A stretch of 42,733 bases of DNA from an uncultured Anaerolineaceae bacterium (GTDB lineage: Bacteria > Chloroflexota > Anaerolineae > 4572-78): assembly GCA_964480075.1 (NCBI GenBank), contig CAYZQQ010000001.1, forward strand, positions 1 through 42,733. Reading direction: 5' to 3'. The position numbers and the translations under genes are program-made. Below the pieces are notes generated by a model that saw nothing but the letters and a program-made list of their open reading frames with translations, was not told where the DNA came from and did no database searches. Shown here one piece after another: positions 834-30,380 of this stretch (position 1 is its first letter; every line of letters starts with the position of its first letter).

Positions 834-3680
834 TTACTGCCCGTTCACCTTTTCCAACCGCACCGCATTCGCCTTAAATTCCGGTATCTTGGCGATGGGG
901 TCGAGCTTCTCGTCGTGGGTCAGCATGTTGGCGGGCGATTCCCGCCAGTGGAACGACAGGAACACTACCCCCGGCGTCACTCGCTCGCCGACACGCGCCT
1001 GCGTCGTCACTTCGCCGCGACGGCTGACCAGTTTCACCATTTCACCATCGGCGATACCCAGCGACTCCGCATCGGAGCGATTCACTTCCACATACCCCGC
1101 AGGAACTTTCCAGTCCAGCCCTTCGCTTTTGCGAGTCAGCGTGCCGGTGTGGTAGTGGAACAGCACCCGCCCGGTGGTGAGAATGAACGGGTATTCGTCA
1201 TCCGGGTTTTCATACGGCAGATTTGGCACCGCCGGATAGAATCGCCCCACCCCGCGTGAGAATTTTCCAATGTGTAAAATCGGCGTGCCGAGATGGTCTG
1301 CGGCGGGACAGGGCCAGGCAAGCCGCTCGGTTCGCAAGCGTTGATGGGTCACACCGCCGTAAATCGGCGTGACATGTCGCGCTTCTTCTAAAATTTCCGC
1401 CGTGGAATTGAAATCCCAGTAGCCTTCGTCGGCGCGTGTGCGTCCCAATTTTTGGTCAACCGCCTTGGCAATTGCCGCCGTGATTTGCCAATCGGGTTTT
1501 GCCTGTCCGGGCGGCGGCACAATTTGATGAATCAACTGCACACGGCGTTCACTGTTGGTGAAGGTGCCATCTTTTTCCATTGAAACGGCGGCAGGCAACA
1601 CGATGTGCGCCAGTTGGGCGGTTTCGGTTAAAAATACATCCTGCAACACGAAGAAATCGAGCGCGCGCATGGCGTGCTCGGCATGATGCAGGTTCGGGTC
1701 GGAGAGAAGCGGATTTTCGCCCATAATATACAACGCATGCACATCTCCGTCCGCCATGGCGTGCGAGGCTTCCACCACCGTGTAGCCGACTTCGCCGGGC
1801 AGGTCGTCCATGCCCCACTTTTGGGCGACGGTTTTACGTGCGGCGGCATCGGTGACTTTTTGATACCCCGGCAGCACATTCGGCAGTCCGCCGAGGTCGC
1901 ACGCGCCCTGCACGTTTGCCTGCCCGCGCAGCGGATTCACCCCGCTGGACGGTTTGCCGATTTGCCCGCACAGCATCGAAAGACTTGCCAGCATGTGTAC
2001 CATATCGGTACCGTTGCTGCGCTGGGTGATACCCATTGCATACAGAATGGTGCTGTGTCCGCGCTCGTCATCGAAAATGGATTGCCCCGATTGCCGCTCG
2101 CCGAAAGCGTACAGCCGCGCCGCCAATTCGATTTTCTCGGCGGGAATGCCCGTTTCCAGCGCGGCAACTTCGGGGGTCATGTTCGCCACACTCTCCTTAA
2201 ATTCCTCAAAATTCTCGGTGCGCAATTCGATGAAATCCCAATCCGCCCACCCTTCGCGGATGATGACATGCGCCATCGCCATAAAAATAAAGATGTCCTG
2301 CCCCGGTTTCGGTTGCAGGTGCAGCGTGGCATGGTCGGTCATGCTGATTTTGCGCGGGTCAACCACTACCAGACTCGCGCCCTTTTTCACCGCGCGGATA
2401 ACTTCATAACTCAACACGGGATGGCTTTCGCCGGTGTTGGAACCGGTAATCAAAATGCAGTCCGCATCGGCGATACCGTGGATGGTGTTGGTCATCGCGC
2501 CACTGCCAAAACTCGTCGCCAGACCGGCGACAGTTGAGCTGTGTCACAATCGGGCGCAGTGGTCGATATTGTTGGTACCGACCCCCGCGCGCATAAATTT
2601 CTGAAAGAGATAGTTTTCTTCGTTGGTGCATCGCGCCGATGTTTGGCTGTGTATCGCATCGCCGCCATAATTTTTGATGACCTCCGCCAGTTTGGTGGCA
2701 GTCACATCGATGGCGGTTTCCCAACTGACGGGCACAAACCAGCTCGGGTCGGCTTCGCGCTCCAGCACGGTTTCGGTGGAGATTTGCCACGGCTCATCGG
2801 TGATGCCCAGCTCGTATGCCAAATCTTTGCGCATCAGCGGCTCGGTGAGTCGCCCCGGTTTGTCCACAAAATCCCAGCCGAAACGCCCTTTGACACATAA
2901 AAATTCGCCGTTGACGGTAGTGTCATCATTTTTGGGCGCTTTGGCATAAACAATTTTATCGCCTTTGGTGGCAAATTCCACCGTACAGCCGACACCGCAA
3001 TAACCGCAGACGGTCTTTTTGTGCTCAAATTCAAAATCGCGCCCCTGTCTCAGCCGCGAAACGGGTTGCAGCGCGTTGGTCGGGCAGATTTGCACACAGT
3101 TGCCGCAGAACACACACGACGATTCCGCCAGTGGCACATCAAACGCAGTGGAAATGACCGTCTCGAACCCGCGCTCGCTGAAATGGATGGCGTTCGCGCC
3201 AACAACCTCATCGCACACACGGACGCATTTGCCGCACATGATGCAATATTGATAATCACGCACGTAAAACGGATTGTCGTCAATATATTTCGCTCGCGAG
3301 AGTTCCACCGGGAAGGAACTTTCGGAAATGTTATACTGATATGCATATTTTTGCAGGTCGCAACTGCCGTTTTTATCGCACACCACGCAATCAAGCGGGT
3401 GGTCGGAGATGAACAAATCCATCACATGACGGCGCATATCTTCCACATGTTCGGTTTTGGTATGAACCACCATCCCGTCCTGAACGGTTGTGCCGCAACT
3501 GTGAACCGGATTCGGCATGCCGTCAATTTCCACCACACACATACGGCAACTGCCGCTGGGAATCAGGTCTTTGTGGTGGCACAAATGCGGAATGTCGATG
3601 CCGTGTTCCAGCGCCGCATCGAGCAGCGGCTGTCCGGCTTTGGCTTCAATTTGCTGGTTGTCAATGGTTATTTTTACCAT
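834..3680 (-). CDS. fdhA: Formate dehydrogenase alpha subunit, selenocysteine-containing (948 aa, UGA-Sec at 2546-2544); 2Fe-2S and 4Fe-4S N-terminal domains plus a molybdopterin oxidoreductase domain
   Basis: ORFs 2544..3680 and 834..2495 share one frame and are separated only by TGA. Read-through gives [33 protein letters not shown]. The N-terminus has NuoG-like Cys clusters and the C-terminus a molybdopterin dinucleotide-binding domain. SD is AGAGGTG upstream of the ATG at 3680. Confidence 0.9.
2510..2546 (-). promoter_or_regulatory. UGA-Sec codon plus bacterial SECIS stem-loop
   Basis: mRNA: UGA CAC AGC UC-AACU-GUCGCC-GGUCU-GGCGAC-g-AGUU. There is a 6-bp upper stem (2531-2515) and a 4-bp lower stem with one bulged G. 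The GGUCU apical loop lies in the same A-G-L codon register as in E. coli fdhF. Confidence 0.8.
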
Positions 3681-3767
3681 AGATGCACCTCTATTGGTTT
3701 TATGGATTCTGGATAATTCCCCATTGCTTGCGACAAATTCGGAATGACAAATTATTTCCTTGAAACA

Positions 3768-4121
3768 TTGTCATTCCCGCGCAGGCGGGAATCCACATTA
3801 GATTATTTTTTCGTACAAATCATCCCAATTAGGGTTCATTGCCTCAATGAGATTAATTTTCCACTGTCTATTCCATTTTTTCAATTGTTTTTCACGAGTC
3901 AGCGCAACGTTGATTTCAGGTGTTTCTTCAAAATAGACCAGCTGATGAACCTGATATTTTTTGGAAAGGCTCTCTGCCAAGTCATTTTTATGTTCGTAAA
4001 TACGCTTTACCAAATTATTGGTTACACCGATGTACAATGTGCCGTTTTTCTTGCTGGCTAAAATGTAAACAAAATAAGTGTTCATTTTTTTTCTTGGATT
4101 CCCGCCTTCGCGGGAATGACA
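3768..4121 (-). mobile_element. AT-rich GIY-YIG cassette bounded by inverted 27-nt palindromic repeats, inserted between fdhB and fdhA
   Basis: tgtcattcccgcgcaggcgggaatcca (3768-3794) matches the reverse complement of tggattcccgccttcgcgggaatgaca (4095-4121), differing by one base in the loop. The interior is about 35% G+C by hand count, against about 58% in a 60-nt sample of fdhB. Confidence 0.6.
3798..4085 (-). CDS. GIY-YIG nuclease family protein (UPF0213/YhbQ-like), 95 aa
   Basis: MNTYFVYILASKKNGTLYIGVTNNLVKRIYEHK... carries the GIY-YIG signature. I prefer the ATG at 4085, because the ORF-track extension to 4127 reads through the flanking repeat. Confidence 0.85.
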   Translation of the reverse strand: MNTYFVYILASKKNGTLYIGVTNNLVKRIYEHKNDLAESLSKKYQVHQLVYFEETPEINVALTREKQLKKWNRQWKINLIEAMNPNWDDLYEKII

Positions 4122-4123
4122 AA

Positions 4124-5878
4124 TCATAATTTAAATTCATCTGCGAAATTCTTCAGCGCCGATTGCATCGGGATGGCGACAGATTGCCCCAGTCCGCAGA
4201 ACGAAGCGTATTTCAACGTATCTGCCATTTGAGTCAATATGTCCGCATCCGCCGCGCCGATGTTTTCCGCGCGCATGTTGTCCAGCAGTTGGCGGGTGCG
4301 CCGCGTGCCGATGCGACACGGTGTGCATTTGCCGCACGATTCGCTTTCAAAAAAGTGCAGCAACTCGCCGAGCAAATCCACCGGCGACATACTTTCATCG
4401 GCGATGAGAAACGCGCCTGCACCGAGACCGATACCGTGTTCCCGCGCCGAAGCATAATCGATGGGAATATCGAGAAAATCGCGGTTGACGATGGTTCCCG
4501 CCGCGCCGCCGGTCAGTGCCATGTTGAAGGTCGAACCGGCTTTCATCCCGCCGCCAAAATCGTCAATAATTTGGCGCAGGGTCAACCCGAAGGGGGCTTC
4601 AAACAGCCCGGGTTGATTCACATGCCCCAGCAGCGTGTAAAGTTTTGTGCCGGCGCGCCCATCGCCGAGGCTGAGTTCGTTGTACCATTGTGCCCCATTC
4701 CGCAGAATGGCGGGCACGTTGGCAAAAGTTTCCACATTGTTGACAACCGTTGGTTTGTTGCGAAAACCGCTGACGGTGGGATATGGCGGGCGCATGCGCG
4801 GCTCACCGCGCCGCCCTTCCAACGATTCCAGCAGCGCGGTTTCTTCGCCGCAGATGTACGCCCCTGCGCCGCGATGGACGTGAATATGGAACGAAAAATC
4901 GCTGCCGGCGATATGGTCGCCGAGTTTACCGTATGCCATTGCCTGTTCAATGGCGAGTTCCAGCACATCCGCCTGTTCGGCATATTCGCCGCGAATGTAA
5001 ATATAGCCCTCGCGCGCGCCGATGGCATATCCGGCAATCGCCATTCCTCCCAACAGCAGATGGGGATTGCTGTCCATCAGCACGCGGTCTTTGAAAACCA
5101 GCGGCTCGCTTTCATCGGCATTGCAAACGATGTAACGGGTTTCATCGGCGGCTTCGGCGACAAATTTCCATTTCATACCGGTGGGGAAGCCCGCACCGCC
5201 GCGCCCGCGCAGATTCGAGTCGGTCACAATCGTCACCACATCCAGCGGCGAGCGTTCCAGTGCGGCGGTCAAACCCTGATATGCACCGTGCGCCAGCGCG
5301 GTTTCAATGTTGCGCGGGTCGATTTTATCGGTATTTGCCAGCAAAACGCGCGTTTCACCGGGACGGGATTGGGTGTAGGTATGTGGATGTGCGGGGGGAT
5401 TTTCGATGGAAGATTTGAGGTCGGCGGGGTTGAGGGTGATTTGAGCATGGTCATTCACCAGTGCGGCGGGGGCGTGGTCGCACAAGCCGAGACAACTGCT
5501 GCGTTCCACCGTCCACCCCGCACCGAGCGCAGTTTTTAGCGTGGTCATCACATCTCCGGCACAGTGCATCCAACACGCGGGACCATCACACACGCGGATG
5601 ATGTTTTCGGTGGTGGGCTCGGTGTTCAGCATGGTGTAAAAGGTCGATGTGCCATACATATCCGCAAAGGGAACGCCCATCGCGTGCGCGGTATGCGCCA
5701 CCGATTTTCTATCCAGATACCCTTCAGCCTGTTGAAGTTCCACCAGCGCTGGAATGACAGATTCGGCATCGCCGCGATATTTTTTCAACACAGCAGCGAT
5801 CGCCGGGAACGGTGGTTCATTCAATATGTTTCCTTGATAGGTTTGCTTTTGGCGCGATTTTCGGGATCGTTTCGCCAT
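4124..5878 (-). CDS. NAD-linked formate dehydrogenase beta/diaphorase subunit: NuoE-like 2Fe-2S domain fused to a NuoF-like FMN/NADH/4Fe-4S domain
   Basis: The 584-aa ORF has an N-terminal thioredoxin-like 2Fe-2S domain (CDGPAC...CLGLC), GRGGAGFPTG, and ESCGKCTPCR. A strong SD (AAGGAGG) precedes the ATG at 5878. Confidence 0.85.
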   Translation of the reverse strand: MAKRSRKSRQKQTYQGNILNEPPFPAIAAVLKKYRGDAESVIPALVELQQAEGYLDRKSVAHTAHAMGVPFADMYGTSTFYTMLNTEPTTENIIRVCDGPACWMHCAGDVMTTLKTALGAGWTVERSSCLGLCDHAPAALVNDHAQITLNPADLKSSIENPPAHPHTYTQSRPGETRVLLANTDKIDPRNIETALAHGAYQGLTAALERSPLDVVTIVTDSNLRGRGGAGFPTGMKWKFVAEAADETRYIVCNADESEPLVFKDRVLMDSNPHLLLGGMAIAGYAIGAREGYIYIRGEYAEQADVLELAIEQAMAYGKLGDHIAGSDFSFHIHVHRGAGAYICGEETALLESLEGRRGEPRMRPPYPTVSGFRNKPTVVNNVETFANVPAILRNGAQWYNELSLGDGRAGTKLYTLLGHVNQPGLFEAPFGLTLRQIIDDFGGGMKAGSTFNMALTGGAAGTIVNRDFLDIPIDYASAREHGIGLGAGAFLIADESMSPVDLLGELLHFFESESCGKCTPCRIGTRRTRQLLDNMRAENIGAADADILTQMADTLKYASFCGLGQSVAIPMQSALKNFADEFKL

Positions 5879-6420: not shown

Positions 6421-8760
6421 ATGACCGCGCTCATTCGCTTCGTTATCGCATGGTTTTTGGGCATTATTTTGGCGCGATGGTTCTCACTGTCACTGCCGAT
6501 ATTGCTGCCGCTGACCCTGTTTGCCGGAGCGGCGATTGTCCTGCTGCGACACAATACCCGTCAGCGCACCGCCGCCGTACTTTTGCTGACGGTGTTGCTC
6601 GGCGCAGGACGGTTCACGCTGGCACAACCCCACATCTCGCCCGACCATATCGCGTTTTATGACGATACCGGCTACCACACCTTCACCGGCGTCATCGCCG
6701 CTGAACAGGATGTGCGCGACACCCACACCCTGTATCGTCTGGCTGCCCAAACCATCACCACTGCCGATGGCATTTCGCATCCGGTACACGGGCTGATGTT
6801 GTTGAACGCAGCGCAGTATCCTGAATTTCATTTTGGTGACCGGGTGGAAATTCGCGCCCAGCCGGAAACACCGCCCGTTTTTGAAGATTTCTCCTATCAG
6901 GATTATCTCGCGCGTCAGGGCATCCTTTCGTATGCGCGCCGTCCGCGCATTACTCTGCTGGCTCCCCAAAAACAATTTTCGCTGCGCGCCGAAATCATAA
7001 CCATAAAGCACCGTGCGTCTGTTGCCATCAATCATATTTTACCCGAACCGGAAGCTTCGCTGCTAAACGGTATTCTGCTCGGCATTCGCGGCGGCATTCC
7101 CACCGATTTGTACGAGCAATTTAATGCTACCGGCACCAGCCATATCATCGTTATTTCCGGCAGTAATATTTCGCTGGTGGTCGCATTGCTGCTATTAGTG
7201 GGACAACGACTCATTGGGCGAAAACGGGCTGTATGGCTGGCTATTGGCGGAGTGACGCTGTACACGGTGATGGTCGGCGCCGACCCGGCGGTGGTTCGCG
7301 CCGCGGTGATGGGCGGATTGTATGTTTGGTCAATGCAGTTGGGACGTCCCAACGCCGTGCGGAACACGCTGTTCGCCGCCGGATGGCTCATGGCACTGCT
7401 GAATCCACTGGTGCTGTGGGATGTAGGTTTTCAGCTCAGTTTTATGGCAACGCTCGGATTGGTGGCGCTCGTTCCCACATTAGAAAGGCTCATCGGGCGA
7501 TATTTGTCGCCATACGCCATTCTCAATGAAGCGTTGCTGGTGACGCTGGCGGCACAAATTGCCACAGCGCCGCTCATTCTGTACCAATTCGGGCGATTAA
7601 GTTTGGTCAGTTTGCTGGCAAACTTTTTGATTGTCCCCGTGCAACCCCTGGTGATGTTTGCCGGCGCGGCGGCAACGGCGGTCGGTATGATTTCACTGCC
7701 GCTGGGAACCGTGTTCAGCTGGACGGTATGGCTGCCGCTGGCATGGACGGTTGCGGTGGTGCGCTGGGCGGCGAGAATGCACGGCGCCCAAATTACGCTG
7801 GCGCACGCATCGTGGTGGGTGATGTTGTGGCTGTACGCCATCATTGCCGCCACCGTTAGTTGGCTTCAAGCTCACTCAAAACGCCGATTTTCGAGTCGCG
7901 GTGGAAACATCCGCCCGCATCCGGTTGCGCTGGCAGCCGTGGCAATCACACTGCTGGCAGTCGTCCTTTCGCCGGTTTTACACACACTCCCGGATGGAAA
8001 CCTGCATGTGGCATTTTTAGATGTGGGACAGGGGGATGCCGTGCTGATAACCACCCCGCACGGCGAACAAATGCTGGTGGATGGCGGACCTTCGGCAGTA
8101 ACATTGAGCCAACGGCTGGGTGAAGAAATGCCGTTTTGGGACCATTCACTCGATGTGATGGTGAGCACCCATCCCGACAGCGACCATCTGACCGGATTGG
8201 TGGACACGGTACAACGGCTGGCAGTAGATTCGGTGCTGGTCAGCGATATGCACGGCAACTCGGCGCTGGCAAAAGCGTGGCGACGCACGCTGGCATTGGG
8301 GCACTCCCGCGTCATCACTGCCGATGCCGGGATGCGCATTCAGTTGGATGATGGTGTTTTAGTGCGCGTGCTGAACCCATCTGCCGCCAGCGTGGCGTTT
8401 CCCGACCGCAACAATCATTCGGTGACCACGGTCATTCAGTTGGGACATGTTCGTTTTTTGCTCTCCGGCGATTTGGAGGCTCCCGGCGAAGCCGCGGTGC
8501 TAAAATCCGGGCAGGATGTGCGCGCTACCGTGCTGAAAAGCCCGCATCACGGCAGTAACACCGGCTCCAGCCCCGCGTTTTTGGATGCCGTATCGCCGCA
8601 AATGGTGGTCATTTCGGTGGGAGCAGACAATCGTTTTGGGCATCCCGCCCCATCCACGCTGGAACGATATGCCGAGCGGGGAATTTCGGTATTGCGCACC
8701 GACCAGTTGGGTACGGTAGAACTGGTTACAGACGGGGCTCGGTTGTGGATGGAACGATAA
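6421..8760 (+). CDS. comEC: DNA internalization-related competence protein ComEC/Rec2 (polytopic membrane domain plus C-terminal metallo-beta-lactamase domain)
   Basis: The 779-aa ORF has many TM helices and the competence domain (GTSHIIVISGSNI). The C-terminal MBL motif is FLDVGQGDA...HPDSDH...SPHHGS. Confidence 0.85.
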   Translation: MTALIRFVIAWFLGIILARWFSLSLPILLPLTLFAGAAIVLLRHNTRQRTAAVLLLTVLLGAGRFTLAQPHISPDHIAFYDDTGYHTFTGVIAAEQDVRDTHTLYRLAAQTITTADGISHPVHGLMLLNAAQYPEFHFGDRVEIRAQPETPPVFEDFSYQDYLARQGILSYARRPRITLLAPQKQFSLRAEIITIKHRASVAINHILPEPEASLLNGILLGIRGGIPTDLYEQFNATGTSHIIVISGSNISLVVALLLLVGQRLIGRKRAVWLAIGGVTLYTVMVGADPAVVRAAVMGGLYVWSMQLGRPNAVRNTLFAAGWLMALLNPLVLWDVGFQLSFMATLGLVALVPTLERLIGRYLSPYAILNEALLVTLAAQIATAPLILYQFGRLSLVSLLANFLIVPVQPLVMFAGAAATAVGMISLPLGTVFSWTVWLPLAWTVAVVRWAARMHGAQITLAHASWWVMLWLYAIIAATVSWLQAHSKRRFSSRGGNIRPHPVALAAVAITLLAVVLSPVLHTLPDGNLHVAFLDVGQGDAVLITTPHGEQMLVDGGPSAVTLSQRLGEEMPFWDHSLDVMVSTHPDSDHLTGLVDTVQRLAVDSVLVSDMHGNSALAKAWRRTLALGHSRVITADAGMRIQLDDGVLVRVLNPSAASVAFPDRNNHSVTTVIQLGHVRFLLSGDLEAPGEAAVLKSGQDVRATVLKSPHHGSNTGSSPAFLDAVSPQMVVISVGADNRFGHPAPSTLERYAERGISVLRTDQLGTVELVTDGARLWMER

Positions 8761-15269: not shown

Positions 15270-15470
15270 CGCTGATAACACAGATTTCGTATGTCATTCT
15301 GAAAATTCGCTGCGCGAATTTTCCGGAATCCACAGCACAAACACCGGATTCCCGCCTGTGCCCGTTGTTTGGGTGCTTTCGCGGGAATGACATTTCTTTT
15401 TTTGAAAACTGTCCGGTGGCTGGATTTTATCTGTGAGAATCTGTAATATCCGTGTCATCTGTGTTCCGAT
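15254..15470. repeat. Composite nested repeat: outer 'aatagaac...acagat' inverted repeats enclosing a gene-less pair of tgtcattc/gaatgaca hairpin units
   Basis: The left arm (15254-15293) matches the reverse complement of the right arm (15422-15470) at about 26 of 31 positions. The inner units are at 15292-15332 and 15345-15392. Confidence 0.65.
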
Positions 15471-30306: not shown

Positions 30307-30380
30307 TGTCATTCCGTAAATTTCCGAAGGAAATTATCCGGCAACAGAATTTATGGATTCCCGCTTTCGCGGGAATGACA
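30307..30380. repeat. Gene-less pair of tgtcattc/gaatgaca hairpin units (same family as the GIY-YIG cassette termini)
   Basis: The left unit is 30307-30340 (stem aaatttcc-gaa-ggaaatt). The right unit tggattcccgctttcgcgggaatgaca (30354-30380) matches 4095-4121 except for one loop base. Confidence 0.65.

Follow-up and report, generated by a model that had tools for sequence, protein, structure and literature searches.

A hairpin-flanked GIY-YIG gene, probably of the Ssn family, between fdhB and fdhA in an uncultured Chloroflexi genome

Between the fdhB and fdhA genes of an uncultured, Anaerolineae-like member of the Chloroflexi lies a small gene for a GIY-YIG nuclease with a hairpin on either side, and this locus raises the question of what the cassette is and how it came to stand inside a formate dehydrogenase operon. 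The DNA analysed, hereafter the window, is a stretch of 42,733 nucleotides (contig CAYZQQ010000001.1), and its cassette was compared with related loci from other genomes. An initial annotation of the window had described a 288-nucleotide GIY-YIG gene between fdhB and fdhA, in the same orientation as both, and had read it as a small acquired or mobile cassette. The gene is indeed present at 3798-4085, and all three genes (the fdhB-like gene, the GIY-YIG open reading frame (ORF) and fdhA) are encoded on the minus strand. Our analysis identifies the module as very probably NTS-ssn-NTS, that is, a gene of the Ssn family of GIY-YIG nucleases flanked by copies of its cognate recognition hairpin. Its parts are as follows.

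3798-4085, minus strand: ssn, gene for a single-domain GIY-YIG nuclease (MNTYFVYILAS...), 288 nucleotides including the stop codon, 95 amino acids, Pfam PF01541 at E=4e-17
4094-4122, minus strand: upstream NTS, (T)TGTCATTCCCGCGAAGGCGGGAATCCAA, forward on the ssn sense strand, its stem ending 12 nucleotides before the ATG
3768-3796, plus strand: downstream NTS, (T)TGTCATTCCCGCGCAGGCGGGAATCCAC, forward on the plus strand and so inverted relative to ssn

The nuclease gene and its flanking hairpins

The Ssn family, the NTS and the Ssn-related motifs (SRMs) were described by Chenal et al. (2025, Nat Commun 16:2388; PMC11893778). In Neisseria meningitidis, ssnA (NMV_0044) encodes a 94-amino-acid single-domain GIY-YIG protein of CDD family cd10448, and the NTS is an oriented form of the dRS3 palindrome ATTCCC-N8-GGGAAT with the consensus CGTCATTCCCGCGMAVGCGGGAATCYRG (PMC11893778). 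SsnA binds the NTS solely in single-stranded form and cuts the DNA a few nucleotides before it, is inactive on duplex DNA, RNA and the reverse strand, and no longer cleaves when Y6, Y17 or E64 is mutated; the GTC arm and the C after the stem are the most important for cutting and binding (PMC11893778). The enzyme reduces the transformation of meningococci by NTS-bearing DNA (PMC11893778). Homologues of ssnA are flanked by NTS-like SRMs, 71% of them by at least one and 42% on both sides, and the authors described NTS-ssnA-NTS as insertion-sequence-like, likening it to REP/RAYT (PMC11893778). The NTS-ssn-NTS layout itself is therefore already known and the cassette is not undescribed; the view of the initial annotation that genes of this kind come without defined element boundaries has been superseded by that work.

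The window protein has the features of this family. PF01541 spans residues 18-92 of a 109-amino-acid ORF, which is essentially the whole of the 95-amino-acid protein, and no other domain was found. As a proxy for N. meningitidis CAX49033.1 we used the product of the N. gonorrhoeae ssnA locus (L093, 601-870), to which the window protein is 57% identical over 90 of 95 residues in a gapless alignment (E=4e-37). This places it within the homology threshold of the paper, E<1e-10 over >75% of the length, which also exists in a strict version of at least 60% identity. Y7, Y18 and E65 of the window protein align without gaps to the mutated Y6, Y17 and E64 of N. meningitidis SsnA; the predicted catalytic residues are Y7, Y18, R28, E65 and N72, and the motifs VYIL, LYIG and REKQLKKWN are as expected. 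The UPF0213-type identity originally given to the gene did not hold up, with 26% identity to YhbQ compared to 57% to the Neisseria ssnA product. Homologues of the window protein number 7996 and are mostly about 95 amino acids long.

The 109-amino-acid ORF starts from the ATG at 4127, overlaps the fdhB stop codon (ATGA) and prepends MICHSREGGNPRKK to the conserved 95-amino-acid protein. It was considered as a translationally coupled longer product and rejected as the conserved form, since homologues begin M(N/K)xYxVYIL and similar extensions elsewhere are read-throughs of the hairpin. Recurrent pseudo-peptides, ICHSREGGNP, SFPR(K/R)RES and WIPACAGMT among them, arise from ssn ORFs called through the hairpin (P0044, P0050, P0057 and P0085), and annotators should be warned that ORFs beside ssn genes routinely run on through it.

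Together the two flanking units make up an inverted repeat whose arms (3768-3795 and 4095-4122) are each 28 nucleotides long, 96% complementary and different at a single loop base. Of the 27-nucleotide inverted units described initially, the second stands as given (4095-4121, one loop difference), while the first begins at 3769 and not at 3768. Each unit consists of an 8-base-pair stem (ATTCCCGC/GCGGGAAT) and a 4-nucleotide loop; the hairpins had been proposed from the letters and were confirmed by folding, the RNA form at about -14 kcal/mol and the DNA form at -9.5 (z -2.4 to -4.5). The 3-nucleotide spacing that had been pointed out was also recovered, the units starting 3 nucleotides beyond the last base of the fdhB stop codon (TGA, 4124-4126) and of the GIY-YIG stop codon (TAA, 3798-3800). 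Their sequence, TGTCATTCCCGCG(A/C)AGGCGGGAATCCA, is essentially the Neisseria NTS repeat, and both flanking units agree with the published NTS consensus at 26 of 28 positions. All NTS copies of the window keep the GTC arm as well as the C immediately 3' of the stem.

NTS and SRM sequences were counted over the whole window, that is, over 42.7 kilobases of the genome, and further copies were found beyond the flanking pair. The core ATTCCCGC-N4-GCGGGAAT occurs three times compared to 0.08 expected, and none of 100 shuffled sequences reached three; the third copy is a solo NTS unit at 30354-30380. The 20-base-pair dRS3 palindrome is exact at 3773, 4098 and 30357, and the published SRM search pattern matches 3769-3796 and 30353-30380.

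Other databases were also searched with the window protein. A PDB sequence search found no solved relative, NCBIfam returned sub-threshold matches only, and the PADLOC matches were limited to PDC-S14 at E ~1e-3, leaving a known defence system unsupported. None of the 50,697 phage records of INPHARED matched and IMG/VR held one relative, and a phage vehicle is therefore unsupported. Plasmid matches in PLSDB were mostly to large secondary replicons or mislabelled chromosomes. This database files two 2.17-Mb N. gonorrhoeae chromosomes as plasmids, and the gonococcal locus used here (L093) is NZ_CP119142.1, 1881119-1882588. That locus has no in-frame ATG directly before the conserved VYILAS start and may be frameshifted.

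Architecture and composition across the family

The comparison set comprised the 80 closest genomic homologues and the window, 81 loci in all. The identity of the homologues, measured on the best tblastn segment, is 57-72%, and among the phyla represented are Proteobacteria, Chloroflexi, Patescibacteria, Omnitrophota, Planctomycetota, Nitrospirota and Bacteroidota. In 72 of the 81 loci, the 200 nucleotides upstream of ssn contain a forward unit; a reverse unit follows the gene in 59, and 53 loci have both, compared to a rate of about 5% for control positions taken from these loci. Enrichment of the unit beside GIY-YIG genes, which the initial annotation had anticipated, is therefore a property of the family, and inspection of the flanks by eye agreed with the counts. 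Between the upstream stem and the start codon the median gap is 18 nucleotides (12 in the window), and between the stop codon and the downstream stem it is 9 (5 in the window).

The AT-rich interior noted at the outset was recovered as well. G+C is 0.35-0.37 across 3700-4099 compared to 0.52-0.60 in the flanks (200-nucleotide windows), and 0.344 in the ssn gene compared to 0.549 in its 3-kilobase flanks. This low G+C is largely a family trait: in every one of 79 loci ssn has less G+C than its 3-kilobase flanks, with a mean difference of 0.11, and its composition follows that of the host (r=0.83). Because the offset is found throughout, low G+C is weak evidence of recent arrival; the difference of 0.21 in the window is at the high end of the family. 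The family-wide offset could possibly reflect a bias in amino acids, mobility or a requirement for opening the strands.

Two metagenome-assembled genomes (MAGs) each hold a pair of ssn paralogues on separate contigs (L020/L021 and L039/L040). In either pair, homology covers exactly the stretch between the outer NTS ends, GTCAT on the upstream side and ATGAC on the downstream side; beyond these points the flanks are unrelated.

Hairpins of this kind are also found without the gene. Two such arrangements lie in the window.

30307-30380, plus strand: gene-less intergenic SRM doublet, a long SRM forward (30307-30347) followed by a canonical NTS reverse (30354-30380)
15292-15392, plus strand: gene-less intergenic SRM doublet, a long SRM forward (15292-15333) followed by an NTS reverse (15346-15392)

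Both doublets lie in AT-rich intergenic spacers with a gap of 6-12 nucleotides between long SRM and NTS, and they resemble REPINs. The one at 15292-15392 folds as DNA at -25 kcal/mol (z -4.8), and its NTS (15346-15392) carries a loop expansion of 25 nucleotides. The loop position tolerates extensions in vitro (PMC11893778), and the long-SRM and loop-expanded variants may therefore still be substrates. Over all loci, adjacent pairs were forward-to-reverse in 36 cases and reverse-to-forward in 14, a ratio that is indicative only, as the relaxed hairpin finder (6-8-base-pair stems) is noisy and returns many false positives in ordinary coding DNA. In L033, a tandem array of half-units at about 3290-3390 repeats GGCCTGCGCGGGGATGAC at least four times, and L086 has three successive doublets of long SRM and NTS around ssn (2352-2970); the array and the doublet series are NIME-like mosaics outside Neisseria.

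Insertion at the fdhB-fdhA junction

Close relatives of FdhB were located on their contigs, and the fdhB-fdhA junctions were compared. In the window, the cassette stands among the following neighbours.

4124-5878, minus strand: fdhB-like NuoE/NuoF fusion (fdhB-type diaphorase subunit), 584 amino acids, upstream neighbour of ssn
3703-3750, minus strand: decayed SRM variant with a long stem (TTGTCATTCCG...GGAATTATCCAGAATCCA), which separates the cassette from the ribosome-binding site of fdhA and is homologous to the long SRMs that L082, L084 and L086 carry at this junction
834-3680, minus strand: fdhA, formate dehydrogenase alpha subunit, downstream neighbour of ssn, with its own Shine-Dalgarno sequence GAGGTG

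The junctions of the relatives, with the identity of their FdhB to that of the window, are these.

L085: FdhB 89% identical; junction empty, the genes overlapping by ATGA, no repeats, FdhB tail longer by 4-5 amino acids
L081: FdhB 88%; junction empty as in L085, ATGA overlap, no repeats, tail likewise longer
L087 (outgroup): FdhB 62%; junction empty, with a 10-nucleotide gap and a long FdhB tail
L082/L083: FdhB 87%; no ssn, a doublet of a long-stem SRM forward and a decayed NTS reverse
L086: FdhB 88%; ssn present, of an allele unlike that of the window
L084: FdhB 79%; ssn present, of the same allele type as L086

The comparison supports insertion of the cassette at a formerly compact, translationally coupled fdhB/fdhA junction. 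L085 and L081, the two closest relatives, lack both gene and repeats there, and the acquired, hairpin-bounded cassette proposed in the initial annotation is upheld. That proposal withstood both of the refuting conditions set for it, namely that relatives always carry the gene here with host-like composition and that the units are scattered with no enrichment beside GIY-YIG genes; autonomous mobility of the cassette is no more than plausible. The C-terminal tail of FdhB is 3-5 amino acids shorter in the window than in the relatives with an empty junction. A target-site duplication was sought at the cassette ends and none was found.

The occupied junctions do not all carry the same gene. L086 and L084 encode Ssn proteins with a mutual identity of 90%, and either is only 68% identical to that of the window; the nucleotide identity of the window ssn to theirs is ~0.70, compared to 0.85-0.91 for the flanking fdh genes. 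In L086 and L084, ssn lies inside a long-SRM (forward)...NTS (reverse) doublet, unlike the window, where NTS-ssn-NTS stands upstream of the long-SRM remnant at 3703-3750. All four occupied or remnant junctions have in common the segment ACCAATAGAGGTG..ATG, which now supplies the fdhA ribosome-binding site. This shared segment suggests that the gap was probably opened once; its content would have turned over since, as sister lineages hold the other allele at another position and the gene was lost in L082. The palindromic cores on either side are at once direct and inverted repeats, and a deletion between them plausibly accounts for that loss. The arrangement in the window is stable, an identical protein being present in the fdhB-ssn-fdhA context on four further contigs from four other samples.

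Several other features of the operon were observed. In L084, the first ~800 nucleotides of fdhB (4001-4800) are 63-78% identical to the relatives and the rest of fdhB together with fdhA about 80-93%; the gene order around its operon also differs, with ComEC downstream and not upstream. In the window, a gene for the ComEC/Rec2 competence channel (6421-8760) lies directly upstream of the fdh operon in divergent orientation and is syntenic in L081, L082 and L087, an adjacency older than the ssn insertion. This neighbour is of interest, as Ssn of Neisseria targets single-stranded DNA that enters the cell. The window fdhA has an in-frame TGA at 2544-2546 (minus strand, motif NIDHCARL*HSSTVAGL), which divides the ORF into halves of 378 and 553 amino acids in one frame, and a similar split (320-379 plus 551-564 amino acids) was called in L081, L082, L083, L084 and L087. 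The TGA is most likely an active-site selenocysteine codon and not the mark of a pseudogene.

Mechanism, alternative explanations and known systems

How the module would act can be predicted from the homologous Neisseria and Wolbachia enzymes that have been characterised. The window protein would bind the NTS only on single-stranded DNA with the hairpin extruded, reading the stem sequence together with the asymmetric arms, GTCAT on the 5' side and C just 3' of the stem. It would nick the NTS strand about 3 nucleotides 5' of the unit, a few nucleotides 5' of the GTCAT arm, and would ignore duplex DNA, RNA and the complementary strand. As the GTCAT arms face outward, the predicted cuts fall just outside the cassette, one per strand, with the sense-strand cut in or beside the fdhB stop codon and the plus-strand cut at ~3760-3766. 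With one cut per strand, excision of a single-stranded circle in the style of IS200/IS605 is not expected; if the module moves, the likelier routes would be recombination or repair where single-stranded DNA has been nicked, or the uptake of transforming strands that have been cut. Co-oriented with the operon, ssn is plausibly transcribed by read-through from the fdh promoter; no terminator-like site and no promoter signal above background were found at the hairpins, and fdhA retains its own ribosome-binding site. The likely effect would be the cutting of NTS-bearing single-stranded DNA, for example of incoming transforming strands, the ComEC gene being adjacent, and such cleavage would shape recombination around NTS sites. 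We infer this enzymology and the role in transformation from the literature on the family, and self-mobilisation of the module is hypothetical.

Several points weigh against reading the module as an NTS-ssn-NTS cassette inserted at this junction. First, the identity of the window protein to the Neisseria product falls narrowly under the strict 60% criterion. Second, the unit at 4094-4122 departs from the published SRM pattern, though only in the final degenerate position, and all three NTS copies of the window lack the terminal consensus G. Third, the nearest units at the gonococcal locus run reverse-ssnA-forward, opposite to the window, and the outward-facing geometry is therefore not universal. 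Fourth, specificity differs between Ssn homologues (PMC11893778), and the window member and the Chloroflexi homologues are known from sequence alone. Lastly, the neighbour-joining tree of FdhB/FdhA is near star-like and L084 is a mosaic, and for this reason the number and order of insertion and loss events cannot be fixed.

The strongest alternative sees the module as a mobile element that is autonomous and mechanistically new, with Ssn as its transposase or homing nuclease and the NTS copies as terminal inverted repeats, a possibility that we take seriously but lean against. The driving enzyme would be a 95-amino-acid GIY-YIG single-strand nuclease in place of a transposase of the HUH or DDE type. 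Its non-autonomous offspring, like the REPINs mobilised by RAYT, would be seen in the doublets (15292-15392, 30307-30380 and the L082 junction), and the cassette would move or convert sites via single-stranded DNA intermediates, favouring SRM-bearing intergenic spots. Such preferred landing would explain the two unrelated ssn alleles in one fdhB-fdhA gap of sister lineages. The empty sites of the closest relatives and the two alleles at two positions in a single SRM-rich gap would suit such an element, as would the same-MAG paralogues bounded exactly by NTS outer ends, the occurrence of 60-76% identical proteins across many phyla, often on short contigs, and the consistent AT-richness of ssn relative to its host. 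The three forward-to-reverse doublets in the window and its relatives point the same way, together with the adjacency counts from the noisy finder, and an insertion-sequence-like architecture was remarked upon in PMC11893778. However, neither a target-site duplication nor a conserved target could be defined, and the inverted units predict one cut per strand and no circle of the IS200/IS605 kind. No copy of >90% identity was found outside the same population in the protein database (the cluster has one member), so that no recent jump is visible, and the locus is identical in the four further contigs. Ordinary homologous recombination through the fdh flanks could spread the cassette equally well, and MAG bins can be chimeric. 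We also count against such an element that, to our knowledge, no strand-transfer activity has been reported for GIY-YIG enzymes. Autonomous mobility of the module is plausible, and the present analysis modestly advances the question.

The hairpins might instead be RNA-level elements of the fdh operon (a terminator, an attenuator or a processing or stabilising stem-loop) with the GIY-YIG gene as an unrelated passenger. The units do lie in transcribed intergenic space, right after stop codons, with a stable RNA fold of -14 kcal/mol, but the stems are followed by no U-tract, no terminator-like site lies at the units, and no Rfam match reached the gathering threshold in the whole window. Moreover, such units are also found beside homologous GIY-YIG genes of different phyla whose surroundings are unrelated, the operon of the closest relatives has no hairpin at the junction, and N. 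meningitidis SsnA does not interact with RNA (PMC11893778), which together make an RNA role very improbable. Least credible is an I-TevI-like GIY-YIG homing endonuclease or a YhbQ/UPF0213-type DNA-damage nuclease between REP-like palindromes by chance: it could appeal to the GIY-YIG fold, to a sub-threshold match to TIGR01453 (group I intron endonuclease, 27 bits compared to a cut-off of 56) and to distant YhbQ similarity, but the protein is only 95 amino acids long and has no DNA-binding domain, an intron or intein context is missing, INPHARED holds no phage homologue and IMG/VR one, the Neisseria ssnA product is far closer than YhbQ, and the hairpin association is specific and oriented. A classical homing endonuclease in particular was rejected, given the lack of an extra domain, the TIGR01453 score under the cut-off and the absence of a match in INPHARED phage records.

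Taken as an NTS-ssn-NTS module, the locus alone adds little, being one more Ssn/NTS pair, from an uncultured Chloroflexi lineage, but the near-canonical Neisseria-type NTS extends far beyond Proteobacteria. New beyond Chenal et al. are the insertion polymorphism at the fdh junction, the NTS-bounded paralogues and the family-wide low G+C. Whether NTS-ssn-NTS is mobile now or was so formerly was not settled in the discovery paper, and no later paper on the mobility of the module came up in the literature searched. The junction provides a natural experiment for this question: among genus-level relatives, the same site occurs in four states (empty, doublet only, allele A, and allele B elsewhere in the gap), a defined system for the insertion, replacement and loss of a cassette. 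The window may also contribute a new enzyme and site pair, predicted from its sequence, to the toolbox for cutting single-stranded DNA.

Among known systems, E. coli YhbQ (UPF0213) is likewise a small stand-alone GIY-YIG protein of about 100 amino acids, with a similarity to the window protein (26% identity over 81 residues, E=2e-7) that is superfamily-level only. We know of no report of NTS-type flanking hairpins at yhbQ. Closer in layout is REP/REPIN-RAYT, in which a small nuclease gene also lies between inverted hairpin repeats that are scattered intergenically as singlets and inverted doublets; recognition of the hairpin in single-stranded DNA would be a further likeness, by analogy in the case of the window protein. 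RAYT is a Y1 HUH transposase of the IS200/IS605 type, whereas the window enzyme has GIY-YIG as its only Pfam match. Unlike for RAYT, no covalent intermediate or strand transfer by a GIY-YIG enzyme is known to us.

With the dRS3 repeats and NIMEs of Neisseria, the window shares three exact cores, and the fdhB-fdhA gap of the window and of L086 is a mosaic of repeats and short spacers. The density in the window is far below that of pathogenic Neisseria, where seven dRS3 cores lie within 1.5 kilobases at the gonococcal ssnA locus; the phylum is another one, and no association with surface-antigen genes was seen in the window. The closest counterpart is the Ssn/NTS system of Neisseria itself. Here the host, an Anaerolineae-like Chloroflexi lineage judging by its named protein matches, is neither symbiont nor pathogen, and the cassette interrupts a formate dehydrogenase operon. 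The NTS copies in the window are missing the C that opens the consensus and the G that closes it, and are accompanied by a long-stem SRM variant that forms doublets, and the order is forward-ssn-reverse compared to reverse-ssnA-forward in the gonococcus. Both systems have a single-domain GIY-YIG protein of ~94-95 amino acids with the same catalytic residues, an oriented hairpin on both sides that is close to the Neisseria NTS (ATTCCCGCG-N-CGCGGGAAT with GTC and C arms), and additional solo copies of this hairpin in intergenic DNA.

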